Virus record (IMG/VR): IMGVR_UViG_650377933_000002
DNA from: a virus
Taxonomy: Duplodnaviria > Heunggongvirae > Uroviricota > Caudoviricetes
Strand: one strand, 5' to 3'
Length of the DNA: 55,306 nt
Numbering within the stretch: position 1 is the first letter of the stretch; every line of letters begins with the position of its first letter. The notes below the pieces were generated by a model. It worked only from the letters and a program-made list of their open reading frames with translations. It was not told the origin of the DNA and did not search any database. Shown piece after piece: positions 15,312-40,217 of the stretch. Made by a program: the position numbers and the translations under genes.

Positions 15312-15670
15312 ATACCTACAGCATCACATTACCCTGGCCGCCGAGCAATAATCGCTATTACCGCCATAATCGCGGACGCACGCATATCAGCGCAGAGGGG
15401 CAGGCATACCGCGATAATGTCGCCCGAATCATTAAAAACGCAATGCTGGATATCGGCCTGGCTATTCCTGTGAAAATCAGCATTGAGTGCCACATGCCGG
15501 ATCGCCGTCGCCGTGACCTTGATAATCTGCAAAAGGCCGCTTTTGACGCACTCACCAAAGCAGGTTTCTGGCTGGATGATGCTCAGGTCGTTGATTACCG
15601 CGTTGTGAAGATGCCCGTTACCAAAGGTGGGAAGCTGGAGCTGACTATCACTGAACTGGGAGATGAATGA
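15308..15670 (+). CDS. rusA: Holliday junction resolvase RusA
   Basis: 120-aa ORF matching RusA ([49 protein letters not shown]..). Confidence 0.9.
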
Positions 15671-15807
15671 TGTTTGAGTCTTATATGGCAGAGCGTCTTC
15701 GCCGCCGCTGGGTGCGCCTGCGCTTATATCGTTTTCCTGGTTCTGTTTTGACCGATTACCGAATACTGAAGAATTACGCCAAAACCCTGACAGGAGCAGG
15801 AGTATGA
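15667..15807 (+). CDS. ylcG: YlcG-like small protein
   Basis: 46-codon ORF ([46 protein letters not shown]) overlapping the rusA stop; matches recalled YlcG; below the ORF-track size cutoff. Confidence 0.6.
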
Positions 15808-15892
15808 AGTCAGAGATAACAATCAACTAATACTGTTTTGTTGATTTTTGCTTGTAATTGGCGTTCTGGTCTGATTTTTGTGGAGTAAGTTG

Positions 15893-21780: not shown

Positions 21781-21900
21781 TTGATGATGCCTCTGTGTGA
21801 AATGACGGTAAACGACGCACTTGTGCCGGCACATAATAGCAAGCACCATAATAGATCAGATTCGATTCTTGCTGTAAGTGATAATTATTCTCGTTTTCGG

Positions 21901-22117
21901 GTCCTTTCCGTCGATCCAACAGGTTACGGGGCGGCGACCTCGCGGGTTTTCGCTATTTATGAAAATTTTCCGGTTTAAGGCGTTTCCGTTCTTCTTCGCC
22001 GTAACCTAATGTTTTTATTTAAAACACCCCCTGAAAAGAAAGGAAACGACAGGTGCTGAAAACGGGCTTTTTAGCCTCTGTCGTTTCCTTTCTCTGTTTT
22101 TGTCCGTGGAATGAACA
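21901..22117 (+). other. phage cos site (cosQ-cosN-cosB); cosN cohesive-end sequence GGGCGGCGACCT at 21929..21940
   Basis: Matches lambda ..CAACAGGTTACG|GGGCGGCGACCTCGCGGGTTTTCGCTATTTATGAAAATTTTCCGGTTTAAGGCGTTTCCGTTCTTCTTCG.. immediately upstream of Nu1. Confidence 0.9.
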
Positions 22118-22637
22118 ATGGAAGTCAACAAAAAGCAGCTGGCTGACATTTTCGGTGCGAGTATCCGTACCATTCAGAACTGGCAGGAGCAGGGAATGCC
22201 CGTTCTGCGAGGTGGTGGGAAGGGTAATGAGGTGCTTTATGACTCTGCCGCCGTCATAAAATGGTATGCCGAAAGGGATGCTGAAATTGAGAACGAAAAG
22301 CTGCGCCGGGAGGTTGAAGAACTGCGGCAGGCCAGCGAGGCAGATCTCCAGCCAGGGACTATTGAGTACGAACGCCATCGACTTACGCGTGCGCAGGCCG
22401 ACGCACAGGAACTGAAGAATGCCAGAGACTCCGCTGAAGTGGTGGAAACCGCATTCTGTACTTTCGTGTTGTCGCGGATCGCAGGTGAAATTGCCAGTAT
22501 TCTCGACGGGCTCCCCCTGTCGGTGCAGCGGCGTTTTCCGGAACTGGAAAACCGACATGTTGATTTCCTGAAACGGGATATCATCAAAGCCATGAACAAA
22601 GCAGCCGCGCTGGATGAACTGATACCGGGGTTGCTGA

Positions 22638-22663
<26 letters not shown>
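22118..22663 (+). CDS. nu1: terminase small subunit Nu1
   Basis: 181-aa ORF identical to recalled lambda Nu1 (MEVNKKQLADIFGASIRTIQNWQEQGMPVLRGGGKGNEVLYDSAAVIKWYAERDAEIENEKLRREVEELRQ..). Confidence 0.95.
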
Positions 22664-26344
<3,681 letters not shown>

Positions 26345-26364
<20 letters not shown>

Positions 26365-27676
26365 TCTCCCGCATATTGCCAGCATGGCCTTTAATGAGCC
26401 GCTGATGCTTGAACCCGCCTATGCGCGGGTTTTCTTTTGTGCGCTTGCAGGCCAGCTTGGGATCAGCCGCCTGACGGATGCGGTGTCCGGCGACAGCCTG
26501 ACTGCCCAGGAGGCACTCGCGACGCTGGCATTATCCGGTGATGATGACGGACCACGACAGGCCCGGAGTTATCAGGTCATGAACGGCATCGCCGTGCTGC
26601 CGGTGTCCGGCACGCTGGTCAGCCGGACGCGGGCGCTGCAGCCGTACTCGGGGATGACCGGTTACAACGGCATTATCGCCCGTCTGCAACAGGCTGCCAG
26701 CGACCCGATGGTGGACGGCATTCTGCTCGATATGGACACGCCAGGCGGAATGGTGGCGGGGGCATTTGACTGCGCTGACATCATCGCCCGTGTGCGTGAC
26801 ATAAAACCGGTATGGGCGCTGGCCAACGACATGAACTGCAGTGCAGGTCAGCTGCTTGCCAGTGCCGCCTCCCGGCGTCTGGTCACGCAGACCGCCCGGA
26901 CAGGCTCCATCGGCGTCATGATGGCTCACAGTAATTACGGTGCTGTCCTGGAGAAACAGGGTGTGGAAATCACGCTGATTTACAGCGGCAGCCATAAGGT
27001 GGATGGCAATCCCTACAGCCATCTTCCGGATGACGTCCGGGAGACACTGCAGTCCCGGATGGACGCAACCCGCCAGATGTTTGCGCAGAAGGTGTCGGCA
27101 TATACCGGCCTGTCTGTGCAGGCTGTGCTGGATACCGAGGCTGCAGTGTACAGCGGTCAGGAGGCCATTGATGCCGGACTGGCTGATGAACTTGTTAACA
27201 GCAGCGATGCGATCACCGTCATGCGTGATGCACTGGATGCACGTAAATCCCGTCTCTCAGGAGGGCGAATGACCAAAGAGACTCAATCAACAACTGTTTC
27301 AGCCACTGCTTCGCAGGCTGACATCACCACCGTGGAGCCTGCGAAGGAGGGCGAAAACGCCAGCGCGGCGCAGCCGGATGTGAACGCACAGATCACCGCA
27401 GCGGTTGCGGCAGAAAACAGCCGCATTATGGGGATCCTCAACTGTGAGGAGGCTCACGGACGCGAAGAACAGGCGCGCGTTCTGGCAGAAACCCCCGGAA
27501 TGACCGTGGAAACGGCCCGCCGCATTCTGGCCGCAGCACCACAGAGTGCACAGGCGCGCAGTGACACTGCGCTGGATCGTCTGATGCAGGGTGCACCGGC
27601 ACCGCTGGCTGCAGGTAACCTGGCATCTGATACCAATAAAGAATTACTTAATACACCTGAAGCTTTACCGGTATAA
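26345..27676 (+). CDS. C: prohead protease/scaffold C (with in-frame nested Nu3 scaffold)
   Basis: ORF 26198..27676; GTG at 26345 (VTAELRNLPHIASMAFNEPLMLEPAYARVFF..) matches the lambda C start and overlaps the B stop; ClpP/S49-like region present. Confidence 0.9.
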
Positions 27677-27685
27677 GAGGCAGTT

Positions 27686-28018
27686 ATGGCGACAAAAGAA
27701 GAGTTTAACCATTACCAGCCGCTGGGTAACAGTGATCCGGCTCATACAGCAATTGCGCCTGGCGGATTGAGTGCGAAAACGCCTGCAATGACCCCACTGA
27801 TGCTGGATGGCACTACCCGTAAGCTGGTTGTGTGGGATGGCACCACCGACGGTGCAGCCGTTGGCATTCTTGCGGTTGCTGCTGACCAGACCAGCACCAC
27901 ACTGACGTTCTACAAGTCCGGCTCGTTCCGTTATGAGGATGTGCTCTGGCCGGAGGCTGCCAGCGACGAGACGAAAAAACGGACCGCGTTTGCCGGAACG
28001 GCAATCAGCATCGTTTAA
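27686..28018 (+). CDS. D: head decoration protein D
   Basis: 110-aa ORF matching lambda gpD (..[30 protein letters not shown]...[64 protein letters not shown]). Confidence 0.9.
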
Positions 28019-28037
28019 TCTTCCCCTTCATCAACAA

Positions 28038-28060
28038 AGGCCGCCTGTGCGGCTTTTTTT
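28038..28060 (+). terminator. short hairpin plus T7 run between D and E (weak terminator-like element)
   Basis: GCCGC CTGT GCGGC followed by TTTTTTT; the stem is only 5 bp, so function is doubtful. Confidence 0.3.
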
Positions 28061-28073
28061 ATGGAAATAATTT

Positions 28074-28349
28074 ATGTCTGTATATACAACTGCAGAATTA
28101 CTGGCATCGACCCAGCATCACTTTAAGTTCGATCCGCTGTTTCTGCGCCTGTTTTTCCGTGAAACCTATCCTTTCACCACGGAAAAAGTCTATCTCTCAC
28201 AAATTCCGGGACTGGTAAACATGGCGCTGTACGTTTCGCCGATTGTTTCCGGTGAGGTTATCCGATCCCGTGGCGGCTCCACCTCTGAATTTACGCCGGG
28301 TTATGTCAAACCCAAGCACTTAGCATGGCTTTCTGAGGCTTTCGTGTAG
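28074..28349 (+). pseudogene. E: major capsid protein E, 5' fragment (interrupted by insertion)
   Basis: First 82 codons match lambda E (MS.YTTA.LLA.....FKFDPLFLRLFFRE.YPFTTEKVYLSQIPGLVNMALYVSPIVSGEVIRSRGGSTSEFTPGYVKPKH), then 9 unrelated codons and a stop; the remainder of E resumes at 39388. Confidence 0.9.
28309..28318. repeat. left copy of 10-bp direct repeat AACCCAAGCA (candidate att core)
   Basis: Identical 10-mer at both E/insert junctions (28309..28318 and 39386..39395). Confidence 0.65.
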
Positions 28350-28481
28350 TTGCTGGTTTTTACACTTAATCTTTTGATAATAAAGAATAAGTTTATCTGG
28401 CGCTTTCACTGAATTTTCCTCGTTATCTGTGTGTTGCAATCATCTCTGTATTGCAGCTTGTATTGCTTTTTGGGGCTAAAA

Positions 28482-29717
28482 ATGGCTGGCGAGAACAAAC
28501 TGAGCGACAAAGCGCTTAAAGGATATCTGGGGAAACCCAGAGAAAAGCAGATCACCATTGCTGATGGAAAGGGGCTTTCTATTCGTGTGAGTACTAAAGG
28601 GGCTGTGAGCTTTGTTTTCTTCTACAGGTTAGCAGGTGGCCGGGATGCTCCGGTCTGGCTAACGTTGGGTAAATATCCTGATATGTCACTCAAACAGGCA
28701 AGGGAAAAGCGCGACGAGTGCCGTGGTTGGTTGGCTGACAAACGTGATCCGCGTATCCAGATTAAGATTCAGGCTGAAGAACGCTTAAAGCCGGTCACAG
28801 TGGAGGATGCACTAAATTACTGGTATGAAAATTACTGTAAGGTGCGTCGTAAAACTCATGCTGTAACGCTTGGCAGATTTCGAAAGCATATCTTTCCCTA
28901 TATCGGTCATTTGCCCGTAAATGACACTCACCTATATGAATGGCTGGACTGTTTTGACCGAATTAAACGTAATGCACCAGTTATGGCGGCGTATGTTTTT
29001 TCTGACACTAAATTAGCTCTTCGTTTTTGTCGGGTACGCCAGTACGCGACGTGTGATGCTTTAAAGGATTTGCGCATGAGTGATGTGGGGCAGATTGCAG
29101 GTAAGCGGGATCGGGTTCTGGATGAAGCCGAACTGGGCCAGCTCTGGAAGGCAATTTTTGTCGAGCCTGATTTAAAACTAATGTCTGAATACACGCGAAA
29201 AATGTTTGTGCTTTGTACAGTATTTGGATGTCGAATGAGTGAAGCCCGATTATCTGAATGGAGCGAATGGGATCTCGAAAGTTGGGTTTGGACTGTACCA
29301 AAAGATCACTCAAAAACTGGTGTTGAAATCGTCAGACCAGTACCTGAAATTCTACGACAGTGGGTAACGGATGTTCACGAAGAGACAAAACATACTGGTT
29401 ATGTGCTGGGAAGTCTGCGAATTAGAGAAAGCGTAAGCAAGATTGGGGGGAAAATCGGTAAACGTTTGGGCCATGAAAAACAATGGTCACTACACGACCT
29501 TAGAAGAACGCTATCTACTCATCTAAGTGATCTCGGTGTTGAATTTTATGTAGTAGAACAACTGTTAGGCCATGCGCTACCTGGCGTGGCAGGTGTTTAC
29601 AACCGGAGTAAGTTTATGGCTAAAAAACTGGATGCTCTGGAACTCTGGACTACATATCTCAATAGCATCGCAGGTGCTGATTCAAAAGTGACAATCCTCA
29701 AACAAAAGGCTGGTTAA
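28482..29717 (+). CDS. int: P4-type tyrosine integrase of the inserted element
   Basis: ORF 28431..29717; plausible ATG at 28482 (MAGENKLSDKALKGYLGKP..); C-terminal catalytic region (..WSLHDLRRTLSTHLSDLGV....LLGHALPGVAGVYNRS..). Confidence 0.85.
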   Translation: MAGENKLSDKALKGYLGKPREKQITIADGKGLSIRVSTKGAVSFVFFYRLAGGRDAPVWLTLGKYPDMSLKQAREKRDECRGWLADKRDPRIQIKIQAEERLKPVTVEDALNYWYENYCKVRRKTHAVTLGRFRKHIFPYIGHLPVNDTHLYEWLDCFDRIKRNAPVMAAYVFSDTKLALRFCRVRQYATCDALKDLRMSDVGQIAGKRDRVLDEAELGQLWKAIFVEPDLKLMSEYTRKMFVLCTVFGCRMSEARLSEWSEWDLESWVWTVPKDHSKTGVEIVRPVPEILRQWVTDVHEETKHTGYVLGSLRIRESVSKIGGKIGKRLGHEKQWSLHDLRRTLSTHLSDLGVEFYVVEQLLGHALPGVAGVYNRSKFMAKKLDALELWTTYLNSIAGADSKVTILKQKAG

Positions 29718-29718
29718 C

Positions 29719-29946
29719 ATGAAAAAAATGGCAATTGTTGATAAAAAGGGTCTGGAGTACATTCCTAACATCGATCGTATGATCCGTGAGAAAGAATGTC
29801 GGGAGCTAACCACTCTTGCAAACAGCACACGCTGGAAGCTGGAGAAGGAAGGAAAATTTCCTAAGCGGATCAAGATTGGTTCCACTGCTGTTGCATATCG
29901 TCTTTCAGAAGTGCAGGCATGGATTCGAGGTGAGTGGGTAGTTTAA
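29719..29946 (+). CDS. alpA: AlpA-family transcriptional regulator/excisionase
   Basis: 75-aa ORF 1 nt after the int stop, with AlpA-like HTH (..RELTTLANSTRWKLEKEGKFPKRIKIGSTAVAYRLSEVQAWI..). Confidence 0.8.
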   Translation: MKKMAIVDKKGLEYIPNIDRMIREKECRELTTLANSTRWKLEKEGKFPKRIKIGSTAVAYRLSEVQAWIRGEWVV

Positions 29947-30015
29947 ATTATCTCAGAATAAAATATTATGAATTACTGATTTGAGAATTTGTACTCAAAT
30001 CAGTAATAACATTCT

Positions 30016-30552
30016 TTATAAGAGATTAAATCCAAATAAAGAGTAATCATATACCGGGGTGCATTGCATCCCACTGAATATGCTGATGTTTTTTTCTGTT
30101 TCTATCCTTTTTTCAATAAGTTGTTGTATATTTTTACAGTACAATTTGTGTGTGATGTTATTATCGTAAGCCTGATATAGCAACGTCAATGTTGACGCTA
30201 GGAAACATACAGATAAAATTAAAATAATATATGCAGTTTTTTTATTTTTTGTCCATGATCTATTTGTTTGTGAAATATAAAGAATTCTGAGGTGGATAAT
30301 GGTGAGAGACAATAGCAGGCCACTCAATAAAATAAGTATTGGGTTTGCGTATTTTATTAATGGTTGAGAGCAAAAAACTATTATAGCTCCTGTGACTGCG
30401 TATGAGAAAAAGGAGTGATTAAACTTCTTACTCCTTCTCTCAAGTATTTTAATTTCATCTTGCGTGGGGGTTTTAGATGCCTCTAATATAAGTTTATTGA
30501 ATTTTTCTGTTATCTTGTTTTTTGTGTTTGTGGCTATTTTTTTTAGATTCAT
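30016..30552 (-). CDS. hypothetical membrane protein (AT-rich accessory gene)
   Basis: 178-aa ORF in a very AT-rich segment; at least three hydrophobic helices (..VTGAIIVFCSQPLI..ILILLSGLLLSLTIIHL..AYIILILSVCFLASTLTLLY..). Confidence 0.45.
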   Translation of the reverse strand: MNLKKIATNTKNKITEKFNKLILEASKTPTQDEIKILERRSKKFNHSFFSYAVTGAIIVFCSQPLIKYANPILILLSGLLLSLTIIHLRILYISQTNRSWTKNKKTAYIILILSVCFLASTLTLLYQAYDNNITHKLYCKNIQQLIEKRIETEKNISIFSGMQCTPVYDYSLFGFNLL

Positions 30553-30902
30553 AGCATTCTAACTCCCTTAACTTATTTATTACTTTCTCTTTATGATAAG
30601 AGAGGGGAATGACTTGGTAAAGTGATTTGTCATTAATAATGATAATCCTTGCGATAAATATTTCTGCAAGTTATTTATCTGTTTGTTGCTATCTTGTTAA
30701 GCGTTGGGTGTGGTTTATGTTTGGAGTGACTTTATTTAATCGTGATTTTATGGATTTATATTTATATCCTGTAAGATAAGCGCATGTTAGTTCAGGAGTA
30801 GTGTCAGATAAAATTATTCGGAGTAGAACTACCTTTTCTGTTTATTGCCAGTATTTACATAGCAATGCGCCGTAGTTACTCACATCACGGCGCTGATACT
30901 AA

Positions 30903-31205
30903 TTATTCAGATTCTTTGGCTTTACGCCGCTGGAGTTCTTCACGAGCGACGGCTACGAGTTGCCCGATTTCCTCCGCTACCTTGATGCCGATTTGTTCGA
31001 CCTTAGCTAAGGCATCCAGTGAAGACACGAGGGGATTTTCTCCGCTTCCTTCTGCCTGGCGGCGGGCGATCTCACCGCGCATGGCGGTTACTATGAATCC
31101 GGCGTTGCTTTCGCCGTCCAGTTTTACGGATTCCATGCCCTCCATAACATCGTGGGGAACCCTGATCGTTGTCATTTGCGATTTTGCATTTTTGTATACA
31201 GACAT
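30903..31205 (-). CDS. putative transcriptional regulator of the element
   Basis: 100-aa ORF divergent from the replication operon and separated from it by an operator-like repeat region; charged coiled-coil-like C-terminus; function inferred from position only. Confidence 0.4.
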   Translation of the reverse strand: MSVYKNAKSQMTTIRVPHDVMEGMESVKLDGESNAGFIVTAMRGEIARRQAEGSGENPLVSSLDALAKVEQIGIKVAEEIGQLVAVAREELQRRKAKESE

Positions 31206-31413
31206 AGTTAATCACCAATTTGTTATGTGTATATCACTATACACAAAAGTGAGATATAAAAACACTTGCAATGTATATCACCACAATATAATGTATATCT
31301 CACATTATGGTCGCTATGTATCTCACAATGATCGATTCATAAAAACGACGAAACCCGGCAGTGCGCGAACACTAACCGGGCTTCTAACCAAACCGTTAAA
31401 CGAGGTAACGACT
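31206..31413. promoter_or_regulatory. divergent promoter region with repeated TGTATATC(A/T)CA operator-like motifs
   Basis: Four or more copies/inverted copies of GTGTATATCAC, GTGAGATATA, TGTATATCACC, TGTATATCTCACA, TGTATCTCACA within about 110 bp. Confidence 0.5.
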
Positions 31414-31704
31414 ATGGCTGGAACACAGCATACCCAAACTCACCCTAAATTTATATACATCTTTCTGGCGCTACATCGCGATCGCATAGCAGATGGAGCA
31501 ACTACGGTACATGTAGCCGCTGACACGCTGTTTATTCAGAAATGTGAAAACAATTTCATCTGGCGTTTTATCGCCCTGAGTACGGCACAACCGCGCGTGA
31601 TTACCATCGAGGCCACCAGCGAACAGGAAGCCCGCCAGCAATCCCCAACTGGCTGCGTGATGATATTCGCCGCCCGTATTCGTCAGGAGGTGTGCCATGA
31701 ATGA
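31414..31704 (+). CDS. hypothetical protein (first gene of the rightward operon)
   Basis: ORF 30865..31704 is long only because of an upstream GC-rich read-through; ATG at 31414 with GAGG RBS gives 96 aa; stop overlaps the next start. Confidence 0.4.
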   Translation: MAGTQHTQTHPKFIYIFLALHRDRIADGATTVHVAADTLFIQKCENNFIWRFIALSTAQPRVITIEATSEQEARQQSPTGCVMIFAARIRQEVCHE

Positions 31705-31921
31705 TCTTTATTTTAAAGTGCTGACACATGCTGAAAACGCGCTCGTTTGTGGCAAAAATATGCGAGAAATCTTATCAACCTGGCTTGATGGGACAACAAA
31801 TGCGGAACACGATGAACGGGATGCTAATTTAGCTGGAGCGTTAATTACGTTACTTGATCCTGTCATCAAAGAGCTGGATGAAGCTATAAAAATACACGAC
31901 CAGAGCTATACCGGAGAATAA
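31697..31921 (+). CDS. hypothetical protein
   Basis: 74-aa ORF, start overlapping the previous stop (translational coupling). Confidence 0.4.
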   Translation: MNDLYFKVLTHAENALVCGKNMREILSTWLDGTTNAEHDERDANLAGALITLLDPVIKELDEAIKIHDQSYTGE

Positions 31922-31923
31922 AA

Positions 31924-32211
31924 ATGAAAAATAAATTTTCTGGCTTTATTGCCAGCGGTCAAACTCATTCAAAAATCAGCCTTGGGGATATTTTCAAAGA
32001 TAGCTATGGCTATCGAGTAAAGATTATTTCGGTTGATGATCGCCGTGTCTCTTATTTGCGTGATGGTTATGATTTTGAATGTGTTATGCCGCGTCAGCAG
32101 TTCGAAAGAGATTTCATTCTGGTAAAAAATTGCAAGACAGATAATCAGAGGCGTTCCGCAGGCTATATCCGCAAAATTCGGGCAATGTTAGTTGCCGGAG
32201 GTAACAAATGA
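31924..32211 (+). CDS. hypothetical protein
   Basis: 95-aa ORF; stop overlaps the primase start. Confidence 0.4.
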   Translation: MKNKFSGFIASGQTHSKISLGDIFKDSYGYRVKIISVDDRRVSYLRDGYDFECVMPRQQFERDFILVKNCKTDNQRRSAGYIRKIRAMLVAGGNK

Positions 32212-34028
32212 AACGTGCTCCGAACTTAAAATACCAACCGCGCGACAAAATGACAGAAGTCATCATTTTTGCTGGCAGTGATGCCTGGAGCCATGCAAAA
32301 GAATGGAATGAATGGGCGGGTAAGCATATTGCAGCAGATGATACACCACCAGTCATTCTGGGTACGGAACAACTGGAAAACCTGGATGATATGCAAATTA
32401 TCGATGAAGGCCGTCATTATGTGCGTGTTTATCGTGCCGGAAAGATCGCAGAGAAAAATCTGACGAAGGTTGCGACATTACTTGCTATTGCAGGCGTAAA
32501 GGAAGCACGTTGTTACCGTAGCTTTGTTGATCGAGAGCCTGAAGACTGGACTCCGCGCCTTGTCGGCCTAAAAGCTGAAGCGGAGCATGGGGAAAGTCTG
32601 GTGATTGAACTGCCAGTGAAGAAGGCAGAGCGCAAAAATGACGAGCGTGCTTCATCTTTGGCGTTGAATCAGATGGGGGCCAGCCAGCGCGGTGAAGTTC
32701 TCCTGGCACATTACGGCGGCGAACTGGCAATCAATGCCGACTCTGACACCGTTCATCATTACAACGGCGTTGTATGGGAGCCGGTTCAGGATAAAGAGTT
32801 ACAGCGTGCTATGGCGCAGATTTTCATTGATGCGGAGATCAGCTATTCGCAGAACGCCATTAAATCGGCGGTAGATACCATGAAGTTAAGTTTGCCTGTA
32901 ATGGGGAATACAGCCCGTAACCTGATTGGATTCAGTAACGGGGTATTTGATACCAGAACTGGTAATTTTCGGGAGCATAACAAAAACGACTGGTTGTTAA
33001 TTGCCAGTGAATTACCTTTCAGCCCACCAGCAGAGGGGGAAACGCTGGCAACACATGCGCCGAATTTCTGGAAGTGGTTGCGCCGTTCGGTGGCTGAGAA
33101 TGACCGCAAGGCAGATCGCGTACTGGCGGCATTATTCATGGTGCTGGCGAACCGGTACGACTGGCAGTTATTCATTGAGGTAACAGGGCCGGGGGGAAGT
33201 GGTAAAAGTGTGATGGCGGAGATTTGCACCATGCTGGCGGGTAAGGCTAATACAGTATCAGCAAGCATGAAGGCGCTGGAAGATGCAAGGGAACGTGCGT
33301 TAGTGGTTGGCTTTTCGCTGATTATCATGCCGGATATGACCCGCTACGCTGGTGATGGGGCAGGGATTAAGGCCATTACAGGCGGTGACAAGGTGGCAAT
33401 TGACCCGAAACACAAAGCCCCCTATTCAACGCGTATTCCGGCAGTAGTGCTGGCGGTTAACAATAACGCCATGTCATTCAGTGACCGCAGCGGGGGGATC
33501 TCACGTCGTCGGGTGATATTCAATTTTTCGGAAGTTGTACCGGAGAACGAACGCGATTCGATGCTGGCGGAAAAAATAGAAGGTGAGCTGGCGGTAGTGA
33601 TTCGCCATCTGCTTACACGGTTTGCTGATCAGGACGAAGCCAGACGCCTGTTATATGAGCAGCAGAAATCTGAAGAAGCACTGGCGATAAAGCGAGAGGG
33701 GGATTCGCTGGTGGACTTCTGCGGCTATCTCATGGCATCGGTAATGTGTGATGGCCTGTTAGTGGGTAATGCTGAAATTGTGCCATTCAGCCCACGCAGG
33801 TATCTCTATCATGCCTATCTGGCTTATATGAGGGCACATGGGTTTGGTAAACCTGTAACACTGACGCGCTTCGGTAAAGATATGCCGGGGGCAATGGCGG
33901 AATATGGCAGGGAGTATATGAAACGGAAAACGAAGCACGGTTTGCGTTCAAACGTGACACTGACGGAGGAATCAGAAGACTGGATGCCATCATGTGTATC
34001 GGTCACTAATGACGATAGCAAAAATTAA
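32208..34028 (+). CDS. primase/helicase (P4-alpha-like, SF3-type P-loop NTPase)
   Basis: 606-aa ORF with GGAGG RBS; Walker A VTGPGGSGKS and downstream Walker B-like acidic stretch (LIIMPDMT); followed by an iteron array. Confidence 0.8.
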   Translation: MKRAPNLKYQPRDKMTEVIIFAGSDAWSHAKEWNEWAGKHIAADDTPPVILGTEQLENLDDMQIIDEGRHYVRVYRAGKIAEKNLTKVATLLAIAGVKEARCYRSFVDREPEDWTPRLVGLKAEAEHGESLVIELPVKKAERKNDERASSLALNQMGASQRGEVLLAHYGGELAINADSDTVHHYNGVVWEPVQDKELQRAMAQIFIDAEISYSQNAIKSAVDTMKLSLPVMGNTARNLIGFSNGVFDTRTGNFREHNKNDWLLIASELPFSPPAEGETLATHAPNFWKWLRRSVAENDRKADRVLAALFMVLANRYDWQLFIEVTGPGGSGKSVMAEICTMLAGKANTVSASMKALEDARERALVVGFSLIIMPDMTRYAGDGAGIKAITGGDKVAIDPKHKAPYSTRIPAVVLAVNNNAMSFSDRSGGISRRRVIFNFSEVVPENERDSMLAEKIEGELAVVIRHLLTRFADQDEARRLLYEQQKSEEALAIKREGDSLVDFCGYLMASVMCDGLLVGNAEIVPFSPRRYLYHAYLAYMRAHGFGKPVTLTRFGKDMPGAMAEYGREYMKRKTKHGLRSNVTLTEESEDWMPSCVSVTNDDSKN

Positions 34029-34039
34029 ACTTATGGAAT

Positions 34040-34275
34040 AACTGTTCACCACTGTTCACCCTGTCATAAATATCTTTTATATCAGTATATTATAGGGTGA
34101 ACAGTTATTTATGAACTGTTCACCAAACTATTCACTGTTCACCTTTTTGATTGTTTATTGAGCTTCAAGGGTGAACAGTAGTGAACAGTTGGTGAATAGT
34201 TTTTGTGAAACTGTTCACCCATTAACATTATGAATTAAAAGAGAAAATATCAAAAGGTGAACAGGTGAAGGGTTA
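34040..34275. repeat. iteron array (about 9 copies of CTGTTCACC in both orientations), candidate replication origin of the element
   Basis: ACTGTTCACC at 34041 and 34051, GGGTGAACAGTT at 34095, AACTGTTCACC at 34114, CACTGTTCACC at 34133, GGGTGAACAGTAGTGAACAGTTGGTGAATAG at 34169..34199, CTGTTCACCC at 34211, GGTGAACAGGTGAAG at 34257. Confidence 0.75.
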
Positions 34276-34315
34276 AAACGCAAAAATTTTAATTTACTGC
34301 TGTGAGATAAAGCCT

Positions 34316-34561
34316 ATGACAGCGAAGCACACAAAAAAATCACAATCGCACGCCCTTGATTTGACGGAACACTGGTTAAGGGTGTCGATAAAAATCATCG
34401 ACCGCAACGCCGGGGAAGGATACGCGAAAGCACATCCCGAACTGATTAGCGCATTCATGACAACGGCGGCTGCAAACTTTGCCACTCTGACCGAACGGGA
34501 GATTGCTGAAGCGGAGGAAGTGACAACAATCAATATTAAGTCCGGAGAGCAGGCAGCATGA
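34316..34561 (+). CDS. hypothetical protein
   Basis: 81-aa ORF; stop overlaps the start of the downstream SSB-like gene (ATGA). Confidence 0.4.
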   Translation: MTAKHTKKSQSHALDLTEHWLRVSIKIIDRNAGEGYAKAHPELISAFMTTAAANFATLTEREIAEAEEVTTINIKSGEQAA

Positions 34562-35007
34562 CGGCGCAAATATCAGTTTACGGGCGGTTGGTGGACGACC
34601 CGCAGACAAAACAGACCAGCAAGGGCACCCCCATGACGCTGGCGCGTATGGCGTTATCACTGCCCTGCAGTCAGTCGGATGACGGTCAGGCGACGATGTG
34701 GTTATCTGTCCTGGCGTTTGGCAGACAAGCCGACGCGCTGGCAAAGCATCACAAAGGCGAACTCCTGAGCGTGGCGGGTAATATGCAGGTGAGCCAGTGG
34801 ACTGGACAGAACGGTGAAACGCGGCAGGGCTGGCAGGTTATCGCAGACAGCGTAATCAGTGCGCGAACGGTGCGACCGGGCGGCAAAAAAGGTCAACAGG
34901 GTCAGGCTACTGACGCACTGAACAGAGCAAAACAACAGGCAGATCAGCAAGGAAGCCATCCACCAGTGGGAGATAATGAACAATGGGGAGATGATATTCC
35001 GTTTTAA
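34558..35007 (+). CDS. SSB-like single-stranded DNA-binding protein
   Basis: 149-aa ORF ending in the canonical SSB acidic tail ..DDIPF preceded by a Gly/Gln-rich linker. Confidence 0.7.
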   Translation: MTAQISVYGRLVDDPQTKQTSKGTPMTLARMALSLPCSQSDDGQATMWLSVLAFGRQADALAKHHKGELLSVAGNMQVSQWTGQNGETRQGWQVIADSVISARTVRPGGKKGQQGQATDALNRAKQQADQQGSHPPVGDNEQWGDDIPF

Positions 35008-35224
35008 ATATTGCCAATAAAAAAGGCCGGAAAAAAATAAATTTTCCGGCATGCTACATAAATCCCGACCAAAGGGAGTGAAGATATTAACACTAATTAT
35101 CCGCGCTGAAGTTGTTATCCCAAAACTTTATACAACATTGCACTCGGTTGCATGTATTCGCATGACAAATATCGGTGATAGCATATATCCACAATTATTT
35201 TTAATGAATGCAAAGAGGATGCGT

Positions 35225-36265
35225 ATGGTTGATTTATATTCGCCTACCCAGCTTGTACAGGTGGTTAATGCTGTAGATGTACAAAAACAACTAAATGCGT
35301 TGTTTACCAGTTTGTTTTTTACTCGCTCGGTAATGTTTGAATCGCGCGATATTATTCTTGATACAATCGACGATCCAAATATCCCAATTGCAGCGTTTTG
35401 TTCTCCTATGGTGGGTAGTAAAGTTTCACGTGACGAAGGGTACGAATCAAAAACAATTCGTCCAGGCTATATGAAGCCGAAAAGCAGCATTGATCCAAAT
35501 AAGTTAGCTGTGCGCCCTGCTGGTGTATCACCTGAGCAATACAATGCTTTTGGAGCGCGTAATATTAAAGTTAAACAGGCGATTGTAAATCAGGCTAAAG
35601 CTATTCGTGCACGTATTGAATGGCTTGCCGTTCAGGCAATCACAACGGGGAAAAATATCATTGAGGGCGATGGTATTGAACGTTATGAGCTGGACTGGAA
35701 TATTAAACCACAAAATATCATCACTCAGTCTGGCGGTGCTGAGTGGTCAGGTAAGGATAAAGAAACTTTTGATCCAAATGATGATATTGAGAGCTACGCA
35801 GAATTTAGTGAGGGCGTCACTAATATCATCATTATGGGCGGTAATGTATGGAAGAAATACCGTTCATTCAGAGCGATAAAAGAGGCTCTGGATACCCGTC
35901 GTGGTTCTAATTCCGAACTGGAAACGGCTCTTAAAGACCTTGGTGATTCGGTGAGTTTTAAAGGGTATATGGGCGATGTTGCGATTGTTGTATACAGCGG
36001 GCGTTATACCGACGAGGACGGAACTGAAAAACATTTCCTTGATCCTGATTTGATGGTGCTTGGCAATACGGCTCTTCAGGGGATTGTCGCCTATGGCGGT
36101 ATTCAGGATCCGGAGCTAATCCGAATGGGGCTGACTAAAGCCGAACTTGCACCGAAAAACTATATTGTGCCTGGTGATCCGGCTATTGAATATGTGCAGA
36201 CACATTCAGCACCACAGCCAATACCGGCCCGCATCAATCGTTTTGTTACCGTTCGCATTGGCTAA
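35225..36265 (+). CDS. lambda E-like major capsid protein encoded by the inserted element
   Basis: ORF 35051..36265; ATG at 35225 with AAGAGG RBS gives 346 aa; clear homology to lambda E (RPGYMKPKSSIDP / ITQSGGAEWSGKDKETFDPNDDIESYAE / DTRRGSNSELETALKDLGDSVSFKGYMGDVAIVVYSGRY versus lambda TPGYVKPKHEVNP / ITQSGGTEWSKRDKSTYDPTDDIEAYAL / DTRRGSNSELETAVKDLGKAVSYKGMYGDVAIVVYSGQY). Confidence 0.8.
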   Translation: MVDLYSPTQLVQVVNAVDVQKQLNALFTSLFFTRSVMFESRDIILDTIDDPNIPIAAFCSPMVGSKVSRDEGYESKTIRPGYMKPKSSIDPNKLAVRPAGVSPEQYNAFGARNIKVKQAIVNQAKAIRARIEWLAVQAITTGKNIIEGDGIERYELDWNIKPQNIITQSGGAEWSGKDKETFDPNDDIESYAEFSEGVTNIIIMGGNVWKKYRSFRAIKEALDTRRGSNSELETALKDLGDSVSFKGYMGDVAIVVYSGRYTDEDGTEKHFLDPDLMVLGNTALQGIVAYGGIQDPELIRMGLTKAELAPKNYIVPGDPAIEYVQTHSAPQPIPARINRFVTVRIG

Positions 36266-36274
36266 GGGGGAGCA

Positions 36275-36616
36275 ATGGCTACTCATTACACTGAACTCAT
36301 GGCTGGCACTGAAGCACTGGTGACTACGCTGGGGATATTTTCAGCTAATAAAGGGGTAATTCCTGCATTTACGCCACTGATGCAGGAAGATGCAACAGGT
36401 GCACTGGTGGTATGGGATGGTTCGAGCGTAGGTAAAGCGGTTTATGTTTCCGCTGTACAAATCGACACCGCGAAAAAAACACAGGCTCAGGTCTATAAGA
36501 CAGGTGTCTTAAATGTTGATGCTCTGAACTGGCCTGAGTCTGTAAAAGAACTGTCAGTAAAGATTGCAGCGTTTGTTGGCTCAGGTATTTCTGTTCAGCC
36601 GCTGGCTCGTGTGTAA
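36275..36616 (+). CDS. D-like head decoration protein encoded by the inserted element
   Basis: 113-aa ORF directly after the E-like gene; weaker similarity to lambda D (..ALVVWDGSSVGKAVYVSAV.. / ..AAFVGSGISV.. versus ..[19 protein letters not shown].. / ..[11 protein letters not shown]). Confidence 0.55.
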   Translation: MATHYTELMAGTEALVTTLGIFSANKGVIPAFTPLMQEDATGALVVWDGSSVGKAVYVSAVQIDTAKKTQAQVYKTGVLNVDALNWPESVKELSVKIAAFVGSGISVQPLARV

Positions 36617-36627
36617 AGGGGGATACA

Positions 36628-37011
36628 ATGCAGAATGATTACAATGACCTTAAGCCAATTGCCGAAATGATGTACCCGAATCCAGCTGTAGAGGAATTAA
36701 AAGCTATCGCTGACAAAATGTGTTTAAGCGAGCGCCTTGTTGATATGAATCAGGTGATGGAAATTACAACCCTGAGTCGGCGTACACTGCTAAACCTTGA
36801 GGCTAGTGGAGAGTTCCCGGAGCGTGTGCAGGTTACGGAAGGGCGTAAGGCCTGGTATTTAAGTGAAGTGATCGACTGGATAAATAATATTCCTCGCGCT
36901 TCTGAATATTGCCGCGTACCTGTCCCAAAAAAGCCAGATGCGGCGCTATGCCTCAAGATTGAGCGTGTACGCCGCAATGCACGGGATGGTCGCTATAAGC
37001 TGATTGGTTGA
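36628..37011 (+). CDS. AlpA-like HTH DNA-binding protein directly upstream of the element cos site
   Basis: 127-aa ORF; central AlpA-like motif (..MNQVMEITTLSRRTLLNLEASGEFPERVQVTEGRKAWYLSEVIDWI..). Confidence 0.5.
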   Translation: MQNDYNDLKPIAEMMYPNPAVEELKAIADKMCLSERLVDMNQVMEITTLSRRTLLNLEASGEFPERVQVTEGRKAWYLSEVIDWINNIPRASEYCRVPVPKKPDAALCLKIERVRRNARDGRYKLIG

Positions 37012-37019
37012 TGAAATTA

Positions 37020-37256
37020 GGGCCCGCTCTGGCTGGCGGGTCCTTTCCGGCGATCTGACAGGCTACGGGGCGTCAGGCGCGCAGTTTTTCTCTATTTATG
37101 GAAATTTTCCGGTTTAAGGCATTTCCGTTCTTCTTCGCCGTAACTTTATGTTTTTATTTAAAATACCCCCTGAAAAGAAAGGAAATGACAGGCGCTGAAA
37201 ACGGGCATTTTGGCCTCTGTCGTTTCCTTTCTCTGTTTTTGTCCGTGGAATGAACA
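37020..37256 (+). other. second cos-like site carried by the inserted element (divergent cosN, conserved cosB)
   Basis: About 215 bp homologous to the phage cos/Nu1 leader at 21901..22117; cosB side nearly identical (..TATTTATG.AAATTTTCCGGTTTAAGGC.TTTCCGTTCTTCTTCGCCGTAAC..GAAAAGAAAGGAAA.GACAGG.GCTGAAAACGGGC.TTTT.GCCTCTGTCGTTTCCTTTCTCTGTTTTTGTCCGTGGAATGAACAATG) but the cosN segment differs (ACGGGGCGTCAGGCGCGCAG versus ACGGGGCGGCGACCTCGCGG). Confidence 0.8.
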
Positions 37257-37451
37257 ATGGAAGTCAACAAAGATCAACTGGCTGACATTTTGGGCAAGAG
37301 TTGTGCAATACTTTTGTCAGACGTAAATATTTTTGAGGAACATTATTATATTGATGTAATTAGAGATATGTTTGATAGGACTAGAAATAAAGCAGACGCC
37401 TTAGTTATGTCAATTGCTGAAATAATAAAGGAAAATAGCAATGATAAATAG
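37257..37451 (+). pseudogene. Nu1 5' remnant fused to unrelated AT-rich sequence
   Basis: First about 12 codons resemble Nu1 (MEVNKDQLADILG versus MEVNKKQLADIFG) then diverge into AT-rich sequence; 64-codon ORF ends at a convergent terminator. Confidence 0.5.
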
Positions 37452-37453
37452 AA

Positions 37454-37477
37454 AAAAGCGGTCACGCGACCGCTTTT
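37454..37477. terminator. bidirectional intrinsic terminator between convergent genes
   Basis: AAAAGCGGTC ACG CGACCGCTTTT palindromic hairpin flanked by A-run and T-run. Confidence 0.65.
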
Positions 37478-37514
37478 ATTATTTGCAAGTTATTTTTTTG
37501 CTGGAGATAAACTA

Positions 37515-38063
37515 TTACTGTTCACCAATTTGCTCTCTAAACTGTGTACTGAACGTATCTAGTTGAGAGACAAATGAATGTGCATTTAAAAATTTATTAT
37601 AAATCTCTTCAGCTGTGCTTTCTAATACAAAAGTAGCATAATTATTATGTGCTAATTTATTTCTTAGCTCTCCGATTTCCATAAAATCAGAGATAGACTT
37701 GGTCAACTCTGTGCTTGATTTTACCTTCTCAATCATAAACTCTTTAAATTTTGGGCCAAAAAAGGAAAAAAACTGGTTTGCATTCCTTTTTTTCCAATCA
37801 AAGAGTGTATGATACTGCCTGGTTAGGGCCTTATTATCGATAAAATCGTGTGTAAGATTACATTGGCTTGGGTTAAGCATACAATGTATCTTAGTTACAA
37901 CTAAAGTTTCAAAATAGCTAGCACATGCTAATAGCATTACTTTTGAAAATTGTGATTTGTAATCATTAGCAAAACTAATCTCATTATGAGTTAGAAGAAA
38001 ATCATAATAACACTTATAGTTATTAAACATACTTTCAATAGAAGTATATCCCATATCCTCCAT
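37515..38063 (-). CDS. HEPN-like protein (Rx4H motif), downstream gene of the DUF262 operon
   Basis: ORF 37515..38096 (GTG); ATG at 38063 lies 4 nt after the upstream stop; C-terminal ..EIGELRNKLAHNNY.. fits the HEPN Rx4-6H motif; strongly AT-rich. Confidence 0.5.
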   Translation of the reverse strand: MEDMGYTSIESMFNNYKCYYDFLLTHNEISFANDYKSQFSKVMLLACASYFETLVVTKIHCMLNPSQCNLTHDFIDNKALTRQYHTLFDWKKRNANQFFSFFGPKFKEFMIEKVKSSTELTKSISDFMEIGELRNKLAHNNYATFVLESTAEEIYNKFLNAHSFVSQLDTFSTQFREQIGEQ

Positions 38064-38067
38064 TATT

Positions 38068-39231
38068 TTACATTCCCTCCAAAATTGTTCTTGCACGTTC
38101 TAGACGTCCAATTACATGCTCTCTTCTTGTTGTTTTATCAGTACTAAATGTCAGAAATTCAGGATCATTTTTAAGCTTATCGATGTAATTCACCGTCACT
38201 TGTCTTATTTTTAGATCTTTATCTTTAAATGAGTCATAAGTTGCAGCATAAAAAATTGACTCAAATAAAGTTATACTCATACGATTCCCACCAGTTCTGA
38301 AATTGATTTCATCAATTCCATCAACACTATCCATAAATTCATTCCATATATTACTAAATAAAGTTATGTCTTTAGTGTCGTAGTTTTTTGCATAATTTGA
38401 GAAATTGTTCAAAAAACCGCTAACTGAGCTTTTGTATTGAGATGTAAAAAGGGACATAGCAAATGTGCGCAATATCGCTTCAATATCACTCAATCGCATG
38501 TCAACAACATTTTTTGAAAGAATTTTTCTCCATGTCTTGTTTTCATTCAATGAAACAAGATTTGAAAGAAAGTCTGAGTGATATAAACTCATACGAATTT
38601 CTTGAGGAGAAAGGTTCATTCCCCCACTATTTAGGCGGTTAAATATTTCAAACATTGCACCATCTTCCGAATCTTGTGCAACCGGTTTGATTACCATATT
38701 TCGTATGGTTGCCAGATTTAAAGTGGTTTGAAATTCGTTTAATGTTTCATAGTTTTTCCCATTAAACTTGTTTTTTTGGGTGTCTGATAGACCATCAAGT
38801 TTTAGGTTGAACTTTGTGAAGTATTCATCATTGTGAAGAATGTTTTCTGGAATGTTTCCATTATCTTCAAAGATTTTTCTCAGTTCAGAACGTTTCTCTT
38901 TTCTAGGGAATACACCATTTACAAAGTAATAAAGGGTCATTAATCTCTGCTGACCATCTATCACTAAAAATTCATTTTTATCTTGTTCATATAAAAATAT
39001 TTGAGGTATAGGAAGGCCTATTAAAAGAGATTCAATGAGTTTTGATGCTCGTTTGATATCCCAAACATAATGCCTTTGAAAGTTAGGGATTTTAAAAACT
39101 TTTGATTTAATAAAACTTATAATTGTGATTATATTAAAATCATTGGGCGTAGTAGTAAGTTGAAACTCATCAATTGGATAGGATTCTGGCTCATCCTCGT
39201 ATTGCTTTTCTTCATAATCTTCTGGTTGCAT
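38068..39231 (-). CDS. DUF262 (ParB-like nuclease/NTPase superfamily) protein
   Basis: ORF 38068..39279 (GTG); ATG at 39231 (MQPEDYEE..) preceded by AAGGA; hallmark DUF262 motif ..FLVIDGQQRLMTLYYF..; strongly AT-rich. Confidence 0.7.
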   Translation of the reverse strand: MQPEDYEEKQYEDEPESYPIDEFQLTTTPNDFNIITIISFIKSKVFKIPNFQRHYVWDIKRASKLIESLLIGLPIPQIFLYEQDKNEFLVIDGQQRLMTLYYFVNGVFPRKEKRSELRKIFEDNGNIPENILHNDEYFTKFNLKLDGLSDTQKNKFNGKNYETLNEFQTTLNLATIRNMVIKPVAQDSEDGAMFEIFNRLNSGGMNLSPQEIRMSLYHSDFLSNLVSLNENKTWRKILSKNVVDMRLSDIEAILRTFAMSLFTSQYKSSVSGFLNNFSNYAKNYDTKDITLFSNIWNEFMDSVDGIDEINFRTGGNRMSITLFESIFYAATYDSFKDKDLKIRQVTVNYIDKLKNDPEFLTFSTDKTTRREHVIGRLERARTILEGM

Positions 39232-39385
39232 CGTGTCATCCTTTTTCTTCGTGAATATGGTTTTTAGACAAGTCCTCACTACACATATCTGTATTGCAGA
39301 AAGTATTGCAGTGATAGGAGTTGCGTAGATATATAAACCACAAAGCTAAGTGAAATCAAATAGTTCTTTCGGGATTGACTCATGT

Positions 39386-39395
39386 AACCCAAGCA
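39386..39395. repeat. right copy of 10-bp direct repeat AACCCAAGCA (candidate att core)
   Basis: Identical to 28309..28318; immediately followed by the in-frame continuation of E. Confidence 0.65.
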
Positions 39396-40176
39396 TGAGG
39401 TGAATCCGCAGATGACCCTGCGTCGCCTGCCGGATGAAGATCCGCAGAACCTGGCTGACCCGGCTTACCGTCGTCGCCGTATTATTCGGCAGAATATGCT
39501 GGATGAAAATCTGGCGATTGCCCAGGTCGAAGAGATGCAGGCAGTTTCTGCCGTGCTTAAGGGCAAATATACCATGACCGGTGAAGCCTTCGATCCGGTT
39601 GAGGTGGATATGGGCCGCAGTGAGGCGAATAACATCACGCAGTCCGGCGGCACGGAGTGGAGCAAGCGTGACAAGTCCACGTATGACCCGACCGACGATA
39701 TCGAAGCCTACGCGCTGAACGCCAGCGGTGTGGTGAATATCATCGTGTTTGATCCGAAAGGCTGGGCGCTGTTCCGTTCCTTCAAAGCCGTCAAGGAGAA
39801 GCTGGATACCCGTCGCGGCTCTCATTCCGAGCTGGAGACAGCGGTAAAAGACCTGGGCAAAGCGGTGTCTTATAAGGGAATGTATGGCGATGTGGCCATC
39901 GTCGTGTATTCCGGACAGTACGTGGAAAACGGCGTCAAAAAGAACTTCCTGCCGGACAACACGATGGTGCTGGGGAACACTCAGGCACGCGGTCTGCGCA
40001 CCTATGGTTGCATTCAGGATGCGGACGCACAGCGCGAAGGCATTAACGCCTCTGCCCGTTACCCGAAAAACTGGGTGACCACCGGCGACCCGGCGCGTGA
40101 GTTCACCATGATTCAGTCAGCACCGCTGATGCTGCTGGCTGACCCTGATGAGTTCGTGTCTGTACAACTGGCGTAA
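39388..40176 (+). pseudogene. E: major capsid protein E, 3' fragment (codons 80-341)
   Basis: In-frame from CCC AAG CAT GAG GTG AAT CCG CAG (PKHEVNPQMTLRRLPDEDPQNLADPAYRRRRII..SVQLA), matching the lambda E C-terminal 259 aa; joined to 28074..28319 it gives a full 341-aa E. Confidence 0.9.
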
Positions 40177-40217
40177 TCATGGCCCTTCGGGGCCATTGTT
40201 TCTCTGTGGAGGAGTCC

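Follow-up and report, generated by a model that had tools for sequence, protein, structure and literature searches.

Sequence comparisons place the capsid and decoration genes of a helper-embedded phage satellite in an old, satellite-specific branch of the lambda E and D families

Introduction

Among the reference phage-inducible chromosomal islands (PICIs) of Gram-negative bacteria, 21 of 29 have been reported to carry capsid genes (PMC10111431). The late zones of PICIs capture late genes of their helper phages, and the capsid genes have been seen as such captures, possibly serving as a backup (PMC10111431). Here, we analyze a pair of these genes, related to the major capsid gene E and the head decoration gene D of phage lambda, that is carried by a PICI inserted in gene E of a lambdoid prophage. 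The stretch of DNA under study (the window, to which all positions refer) is the IMG/VR virus record IMGVR_UViG_650377933_000002, 55,306 nucleotides (nt) in length.

Satellite-encoded capsid proteins have been described in several settings. The PICI EcCICFT073 encodes the capsid protein c1499 and the head decoration protein c1500 (PMC6092414, published in 2018), and its interference with helper phages is exerted by Rpp, which acts on the helper small terminase TerS (PMC6739421). SaPIbov5, a Staphylococcus aureus pathogenicity island (SaPI), encodes the capsid homolog Ccm, which occupies the pentamers of helper-built capsids (PMC8569155). Capsid-forming PICIs (cf-PICIs), according to Alqurainy et al. 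(2023, bioRxiv 10.1101/2022.09.08.507074), encode everything needed to build and fill small capsids of their own and use only the tails of the helper. Finally, Tommasini et al. (2023, PMC10111431) described helper-embedded PICIs (HE-PICIs), with 201 elements at the E site and 491 additional HE-PICIs at 14 sites; upon induction, the composite was excised and replicated, and the satellite was excised afterward. The same work placed the insertion of the element 11capE at Phage_cap_E profile codon 80 and noted that the element has a capsid gene of its own (PMC10111431).

The element in the window is Eco567.11capE, the founding HE-PICI of that study, because the strain, the 10-bp att block, the possession of its own capsid gene, and a 258-bp cos match of 90% identity all agree. 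A 12-kb stretch of the window is 99.8% identical to Escherichia coli O83:H1 NRG857c (NC_017634.1), with identities of 99.8 to 100% across matches, and comparison of Eco567.11capE with the element revealed no sequence difference. An earlier note on this DNA had presented the arrangement as different from the two described models that it named, P4/PICI capsid-size redirection and capsid-forming PICIs. As a claim of novelty, this cannot be maintained: the element and its capsid gene are described in PMC10111431, E and D pairs have been on record since 2018 (PMC6092414), and Ccm offers a further precedent (PMC8569155). The observation is not new, given that the element has been published and that such genes are common in Gram-negative PICIs. 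They make up the capsid and decoration module that is standard in the late zone of these islands, here that of the helper-embedded 11capE in helper E. Beyond PMC10111431, the present analysis shows that the E/D pair constitutes an old lineage of its own within satellites, with reversed gene order and a presence that does not depend on the integration site.

Results

The satellite encodes intact relatives of lambda E and D

The genes under study are as follows.

35225-36265, plus strand: satellite E-like major capsid protein gene (346 amino acids; Pfam Phage_cap_E, open reading frame [ORF] listing)
36275-36616, plus strand: satellite D-like head decoration protein gene (113 amino acids; Pfam HDPD, ORF listing)

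The E-like ORF is preceded by a Shine-Dalgarno sequence, AAGAGGA, 6 nt upstream, and the D-like ORF starts 9 nt past the E-like stop. The E-like protein matched the Pfam family Phage_cap_E (PF03864; E = 1.4e-41) over profile positions 4 to 327 of 329, with a score of 143.1 bits against a curated cutoff of 22.9, and is thus a member of that family; among the PHROG profiles, it matched phrog_29, "major head protein" (3.4e-89). The D-like protein is likewise a member of the Pfam family HDPD (PF02924; 4.4e-15; 56.3 bits against a cutoff of 29.1) and matched phrog_49, "head decoration" (1.2e-25). In BLASTP comparisons, the E-like protein was 42% identical to helper and lambda E over 328 amino acids, and the D-like protein was 41% identical to helper D over 78 amino acids. 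Matches in the PDB were 3BQW for the E-like protein (2.6e-121) and both 1TD0 (6e-16) and lambda gpD (1e-11) for the D-like protein. Both genes are true, intact relatives of lambda E and D. The earlier note had described a 346-amino-acid E-like ORF, homologous to lambda E yet diverged, followed by a 113-amino-acid D-like ORF, and both descriptions are borne out, with exact coordinates and with matches far beyond chance.

The rest of the element was searched for head and packaging genes. When the helper proteins Nu1, A, W, B, C, D, FI, and FII were compared with the element (28319-39395) by tblastn, the sole matches were the D-like gene and a stretch of 15 Nu1 codons, and Pfam and PHROG scans of the remaining ORFs of the element gave zero head or packaging matches. 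The same scans yielded no tail or lysis matches among the ORFs of the element. The earlier note had stated that portal, protease, and terminase genes are missing, which holds for the present copy by all of these searches but not for the family, in which siblings carry a full Nu1-like gene. In a promoter and terminator scan around the E-D pair, promoter-like sites were less frequent than in shuffled sequence, and none upstream of E was convincing.

The E-D pair forms a satellite lineage that is independent of the integration site

The closest relatives of the pair are found in other satellites. Against 50,697 phage genomes, the best tblastn match to satellite E was a lambda-type E at 42% identity, and the best match to satellite D reached 40%. 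A protein search produced a continuous series of matches from 99% to about 50% identity, followed by a step down to phage-type proteins at 38 to 44%. The upper series spans Escherichia, Cedecea, Scandinavium, Serratia, Edwardsiella, Salmonella, and Lelliottia; all 14 of its loci for which the DNA context was inspected belong to satellites, which carry genes for an integrase, AlpA, and replication but no A, B, or tail genes of their own. The lower-series loci all lie within full lambda-like head operons. Satellite loci were obtained from a scan of species-representative genomes (four loci), with further contexts added through exact-protein look-ups.

In a neighbor-joining tree, the satellite-type and phage-type E proteins were separated in 200 of 200 bootstraps (with the chimeric protein P0044 left out), with identities of 48 to 99% within the satellite type and 33 to 47% between types. 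The gene order is E and then D in 14/14 satellite loci, with a gap of 8 to 14 nt (an overlap in L065), in contrast to phage loci, where D precedes E. The gene directly 3' of D in the window, which encodes an AlpA-like protein, occupies the same place in L005-L008, L058, and L061-L065, and the module always runs in the order E, D, AlpA-like gene, and cos. Because of the split in the tree, the lack of a close phage match, and the reversed gene order, these sequence comparisons show the E/D pair to be an old satellite-specific branch of the lambda E and D families and not a recent copy from a helper.

The module is found at many integration sites. It is located at fis in Serratia and Lelliottia (L058 and L060), at roxA/phoQ in CFT073, at tRNA-Pro and at cspD/clpS in E. 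coli, within the helper portal gene in Edwardsiella (L059), where helper D and E are intact, and within a P2-like prophage in Salmonella (L065). Of 5,426 complete E. coli genomes, 395 contain the E-D pair, but only 172 show the attL junction between helper E and the integrase. Therefore, compensation for an interrupted E is not the general reason for carriage, although in the embedded state it could be a side benefit.

Several individual loci deserve separate mention. In Salmonella enterica (L065:4283-14260), the PICI lies between tail-fiber genes and a 301-amino-acid C-terminal fragment of the tail sheath protein of a P2-like myovirus prophage; this element may be an HE-PICI whose site, a P2-type sheath gene, is not among the 14 lambda-cognate sites of PMC10111431. 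The fis-site PICI of Lelliottia (L060:11409-12752) has a gene for an S49 peptidase, similar to the lambda C protease/scaffold protein, after satellite E and D; the resulting E, D, C arrangement inverts that of phages, which is C, D, E. On a metagenome scaffold from ENA (L064:2801-3829), residues 1 to ~228 of the capsid protein are of the lambda type and residues ~229 to 342 are of the satellite type, with helper-type C and D upstream, satellite D and the AlpA-like gene downstream, and the crossover in the conserved LDTRRGSNSELETA. The product, P0044, was considered as an intermediate lineage, and its inclusion reduced the tree support to 148/200; it proved to be a chimera of helper E and satellite E on a single metagenome scaffold and was excluded. 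The chimera junction is absent from the 5,426 complete E. coli genomes, and the scaffold is either an assembly artifact or a rare helper-satellite recombinant. The species-representative scan yielded mainly lambda-type E, with many of the hits in unrelated assemblies such as those of Bacillus and Streptomyces; nearly identical contigs with lambda head genes (L010-L025 and others) were found in assemblies of Neobacillus, Kitasatospora, Shewanella, and Pseudomonas and in an Akkermansia metagenome-assembled genome, among others. These lambda contigs are most likely lambda DNA contamination of sequencing libraries.

Both proteins are maintained by selection, and D has diverged alongside E

The ratio of nonsynonymous to synonymous substitution rates (dN/dS) was estimated for unsaturated pairs from E. 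coli, giving 0.036 to 0.089 for E and 0.056 to 0.24 for D. Between genera, synonymous sites are saturated (proportion of synonymous differences, pS, 0.63 to 0.84), whereas the corresponding nonsynonymous proportion, pN, of E is only 0.04 to 0.12. All ORFs are intact, with 343 to 351 codons for E and 110 to 113 codons for D. Both proteins are clearly under strong purifying selection for function. Between L061 and the window, dS is 1.24 in E but 0.24 in the neighboring D, which points to a recombination breakpoint between E and D.

The structure of satellite E was modeled with AlphaFold2 from an alignment of 70 sequences; an alignment of 20 sequences had given an unusable model, with a mean predicted local distance difference test (pLDDT) score of 49.6. 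The 70-sequence model (pLDDT, 80.8; predicted template modeling score, 0.81) has a complete HK97 layout, with predicted N-arm helices, a poorly ordered E-loop tip, a spine helix (residues 103 to 141), and the sheets of the A and P domains. Foldseek aligned it to 3BQW with a template modeling (TM) score of 0.91 and to lambda gpE (7VI9 and 7SJ5) with TM scores of 0.83 to 0.86, in agreement with an HK97 fold; the comparison with lambda gpE that the earlier note proposed as a check thus supports its view of the protein. Across the satellite and phage E clades, 33 residues are invariant. The regions with the lowest identity between the clades are the N-arm (28%), the spine helix (28%), and the E-loop region (38%), whereas identity peaks at residues 226 to 290 (54%).

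The satellite D proteins have a clade-specific stretch of 25 N-terminal residues and a C-terminal SVQPL extension that are not present in phage D. In place of the phage-type N-terminal capsid-binding strand motif, they have a conserved N terminus of their own (HYTEL.AGTE.LV.TLG) that is shorter by 4 residues. In lambda, the N terminus of gpD completes a beta-sheet of four strands, to which one gpE subunit contributes its E-loop and a second gpE subunit its N-arm (PMC5701804). Satellite E and D thus resemble a coevolved pair, since the N terminus of D appears to have diverged alongside the N-arm and E-loop of E, its contact sites in lambda. Coevolution of this kind would explain why the satellite carries D despite an intact helper D.

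The element splits helper E and retains a typical PICI gene order

The host prophage is lambdoid, with Nu1, A, W, B, C, and D within 22118-28018 and FI, FII, Z, U, V, and the tail genes from 40218 onward. The features that define the element and its junctions are the following.

27686-28018, plus strand: helper head decoration gene D, intact (Pfam HDPD, 7.1e-21; annotated as head decoration protein)
28074-28318, plus strand: helper E 5' fragment, codons 1 to 82 (Phage_cap_E profile positions 1-78; phrog_6020 positions 1-82; RefSeq pseudogene, "missing C-terminus")
28309-28318, strand not applicable: attL core AACCCAAGCA (the only shared block of at least 10 nt between both junction regions; matches the 10-bp identity block of PMC10111431)
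28431-29717, plus strand: satellite tyrosine integrase (RefSeq start, 28482; Pfam Arm-DNA-bind_3 and Phage_integrase; annotation)
29719-29946, plus strand: AlpA, excisionase/regulator (Pfam Phage_AlpA, 2.8e-15)
32208-34028, plus strand: satellite primase/D5-type helicase (Pfam D5_N, DUF5906, and Pox_D5; phrog_864, 3.9e-186)
34558-35007, plus strand: satellite single-stranded DNA-binding protein, SSB (Pfam SSB, 1e-15)
36628-37011, plus strand: second AlpA-like gene, encoding a helix-turn-helix protein, directly 3' of D (Pfam Phage_AlpA, 7.6e-9; phrog_2790, 1.1e-49)
39386-39395, strand not applicable: attR core AACCCAAGCA (10-bp direct repeat with attL)
39396-40176, plus strand: helper E 3' fragment, codons 83 to 341 (phrog_6020 positions 84-340, 1.6e-156)

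The satellite interrupts helper E at codons 79 to 82, with the att core corresponding to nt 236 to 245 of the gene, and the frame of the N-terminal fragment continues into 9 unrelated codons before a stop. Joining of the flanks restores an in-frame helper E of 341 amino acids that is 96% identical to lambda E (the lambda sequence used agrees with the lambda-type protein P0047); lambda itself does not have the exact att core. No feature of the locus is more striking than the split of helper E at the satellite site, which the earlier note does not mention and which has been published as the HE-PICI configuration. Located in a helper late gene at about codon 80, co-oriented with it, and without replacement sequence, the element is an HE-PICI of the site E:Phage_cap_E:80. 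It also conforms to the definition of Gram-negative PICIs (Fillol-Salom 2018), which are mostly unidirectional elements of about 10 to 15 kb that carry int, alpA, and pri-rep and lack lysis and tail genes; the element has 11.08 kb between the att cores and genes for Int, AlpA, a D5-type primase, and SSB. The genes are arranged in the order integrase, AlpA, a small regulatory region, D5-type primase, a conserved hypothetical gene, SSB, E, D, the AlpA-like gene, and cos, followed by HEPN and DUF262 genes in reverse orientation. The KPK codons of satellite E show no consistent pattern of synonymous recoding that would avoid the att core. An Rfam scan of 28000-40200 (E ≤ 0.01) returned only symR, MIR5380, and MicX, all far under the gathering scores and none credible, and detected no C4/isrK immunity RNA.

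The satellite cos resembles that of the helper but has different cohesive ends

Downstream of the AlpA-like gene, three further features complete the element.

37037-37294, plus strand: satellite cos region, cosQ/cosN/cosB-like (233/258 nt, 90%, identical to helper cos at 21898-22155)
37257-37301, plus strand: Nu1-like small terminase remnant, the first 15 codons (start of the ORF 37257-37451; tblastn match to helper Nu1 residues 1-15, 80% identity)
37515-39231, minus strand: cargo, a two-gene defense candidate with HEPN and DUF262/GmrSD_N (Pfam HEPN_RiboL-PSP and GmrSD_N; PADLOC)

The similarity between satellite and helper cos covers cosB and the first Nu1 codons. At cosN, the satellite has GGGCGTCAGGCG and the helper has GGGCGGCGACCT; the cohesive ends differ at 5/12 positions and therefore would not anneal to each other. 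The sibling L002 has the same cosN variant as the element. The 15 codons of the Nu1 remnant are joined to unrelated sequence, beyond which the HEPN/DUF262 cargo is located. At the corresponding place (15334-15885), L002 encodes a full Nu1 homolog of 183 amino acids (Pfam Phage_Nu1, 8e-82) that is 73% identical to helper Nu1, nearly identical in the N-terminal 100 amino acids and diverged in the C-terminal 80. The PADLOC matches of the cargo were NsnA (2e-59), PD-T4-2_A (7e-39), and PD-T4-2_B (2e-4). At the cargo position next to attR, siblings hold TIR, Abi, or DUF2971 genes, and hence this position is a variable defense hotspot.

Discussion

We favor, with middling confidence, the view that the products of the two genes are a matched shell and cement pair that is used together with the helper machinery and that is redundant with lambda-like helpers under laboratory conditions. 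After induction, the genes would be transcribed with the co-oriented satellite from its own AlpA-dependent promoter and, in the embedded state, would receive extra transcription through helper late read-through. The E-like protein would be an assembly-competent shell subunit of the HK97 fold, and the D-like protein would be its cognate trimeric cement, with a capsid-binding N-terminal strand that would have changed in step with the satellite E N-arm and E-loop. Both proteins would add to, or partly replace, helper E and D in capsids that are nucleated on the helper portal and shaped by the helper scaffold and protease, and the helper terminase would fill these capsids by acting on the satellite cos. 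Redundancy of the contribution would explain the absence of a knockout phenotype in EcCICFT073, and the presence of a C-like S49 gene after D in some relatives, such as L060, fits a structural role. The earlier note had likewise proposed that a satellite shell subunit assembles on the helper portal, scaffold, and terminase; in view of the complete predicted fold, the purifying selection, and the clade-matched D, this proposal appears to be the most plausible one, with the function itself remaining putative.

A number of findings weigh against a shared role in helper capsids. Deletion of c1499 or c1500 left the transfer of EcCICFT073 by its resident helper unchanged and did not alter lambda interference either; moreover, the packaged EcCICFT073 DNA was all phage-sized, and the authors report no phenotype for c1499 (PMC6092414). 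Therefore, any structural role is dispensable in EcCICFT073, and these data essentially match the outcome that the earlier note had named as refuting its proposal. This result is not decisive for the element in the window, because the pair is only 54 to 55% identical to that of EcCICFT073 and the latter PICI is not embedded. Virions of the NRG857c helper could not be detected (PMC10111431). The purifying selection indicates that the proteins matter but not which job they do. The clade member L065 is located in a P2-like prophage with an unrelated capsid family, which is awkward if a lambda-type portal or scaffold is needed, unless the prophage is a mere integration site. As for the suggestion in the earlier note that capsids of altered size or stability are built, the lack of effect of the EcCICFT073 deletions and the phage-sized DNA count against it, without settling the matter for the present element.

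An alternative that originates with Tommasini et al. is that satellite E, with D, is a backup that replaces the split helper E, allowing capsids to be made before or without excision. Helper E, interrupted at codons 79 to 82, cannot be expressed until excision, and satellite E is co-oriented with the helper late genes, so that late read-through would transcribe it. However, the module also resides in PICIs whose insertion leaves capsid genes uninterrupted (at fis, roxA/phoQ, tRNA-Pro, and cspD/clpS, in the portal gene, and in the P2-like prophage), and at least 223 of the 395 E. coli carriers have no E-site junction. Furthermore, at 40 to 42% identity to helper E and D and in a separate clade, the pair is not a copy of the interrupted gene, and satellite D is carried even though helper D is intact. 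We therefore consider the backup function unlikely. A stronger version of the embedded scenario, to which we assign a similarly low likelihood, holds that E/D is a self-sufficient shell module that makes satellite-only capsids on helper portals and that, when embedded in E, takes over the capsid. In that case, helper E would be kept split while helper late transcription enters the satellite, the first procapsids would be made from satellite E and D, and packaging into these would proceed preferentially from the satellite cos, as its cohesive end, GGGCGTCAGGCG, is unlike that of the helper; the null result in EcCICFT073 would be due to the nonembedded context and the helpers tested.

Interference or size redirection is a further candidate, in which the satellite proteins would act in the manner of Ccm, either poisoning helper shells or imposing smaller shells (T=4 or T=3) with room for satellite DNA but not for helper DNA. 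In its favor, Ccm changes capsid geometry from its place in the pentamers (PMC8569155), the Pasteurella element PmCI172, a PICI with a capsid homolog, makes small capsids (PMC6092414), and the N-arm, E-loop, and spine helix, which are richest in intersubunit contacts, are the regions of satellite E most diverged from phage E. This explanation is nonetheless improbable, considering that EcCICFT073 DNA is phage-sized, that lambda interference persists when c1499 or c1500 is deleted (PMC6092414), and that the action of Rpp on TerS accounts for the interference by EcCICFT073 (PMC6739421). The length of the element is also compatible with an unaltered shell, in that four copies of 11.08 kb amount to 44 kb and fit a normal lambda head. 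The packaging limits of the lambda head accommodate 44 kb. It could be argued, finally, that the genes are functionless passengers, leftovers of late-gene capture whose sole use is to provide homology for recombination with the late operons of helpers. Capture of helper late genes by PICI late zones does occur (PMC10111431), the knockouts had no phenotype (PMC6092414), the chimera of helper E and satellite E on one metagenome scaffold has its crossover in LDTRRGSNSELETA, and the contrast in dS between E (1.24) and D (0.24) in one pair indicates recombination. Conversely, dN/dS values of 0.04 to 0.24, intact ORFs in at least 8 genera, and saturated synonymous sites are incompatible with neutral decay; no close phage source was found in the 50,697 phage genomes; and the chimera junction does not occur in the 5,426 complete E. 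coli genomes, leaving the passenger explanation with very little credence. Whatever probability remains belongs to some function that has yet to be conceived.

A capsid gene is retained in most Gram-negative PICIs (21 of 29 reference elements), and the decoration gene follows it in every satellite locus examined here, but the only knockouts are without phenotype, which raises the question of why satellites retain the genes. The present results narrow this question: the genes are neither decaying captures nor a patch for an interrupted helper gene. They are an old lineage owned by satellites, and the selection on them equals in strength that on essential phage genes, with a D that appears to have codiverged with E. 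A structural role, if true, could add to the means by which satellites exploit the assembly of helper capsids.

Of the described systems, EcCICFT073 belongs to the same clade and shares with the element the order DUF4222, primase, hypothetical gene, SSB, E, D, and a further gene (AlpA-like in the window); E is 55% identical to c1499, the structure of which is PDB 3BQW, and D is 54% identical to c1500. EcCICFT073 differs in its chromosomal location by roxA/phoQ, not within a helper, and in possessing Rpp and a non-lambda cosB, whereas the element has a lambda-like cosB and only a remnant of Nu1; the knockout data come from EcCICFT073 only. P4-type size redirection, which relies on the external scaffold Sid and the decoration protein Psu, finds no counterpart in the element, none of whose ORFs matched Sid or Psu in the Pfam and PHROG scans. 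With cf-PICIs, the element has in common that the satellite encodes its own capsid protein, but in place of a complete head module (capsid, protease/scaffold, portal, connectors, and small terminase), it contains only the E-like gene, the D-like gene, and the 15-codon Nu1 remnant. Like SaPIbov5 with Ccm, the element encodes a homolog of the helper capsid protein without a portal or terminase of its own, and the co-assembly of Ccm with the helper capsid protein is the mechanism that the earlier note put forward. Ccm belongs to a Gram-positive cos SaPI and to an unrelated sequence family, has no decoration partner, and alters the shape and size of capsids, an effect that EcCICFT073 did not show. 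Finally, the satellite proteins share Pfam families, fold, and approximate length with lambda gpE and gpD and with phage 21 SHP, from which they are set apart by an identity of 40 to 42%, reversed gene order, different D termini, and a location unlinked from Nu1-A-W-B-C.

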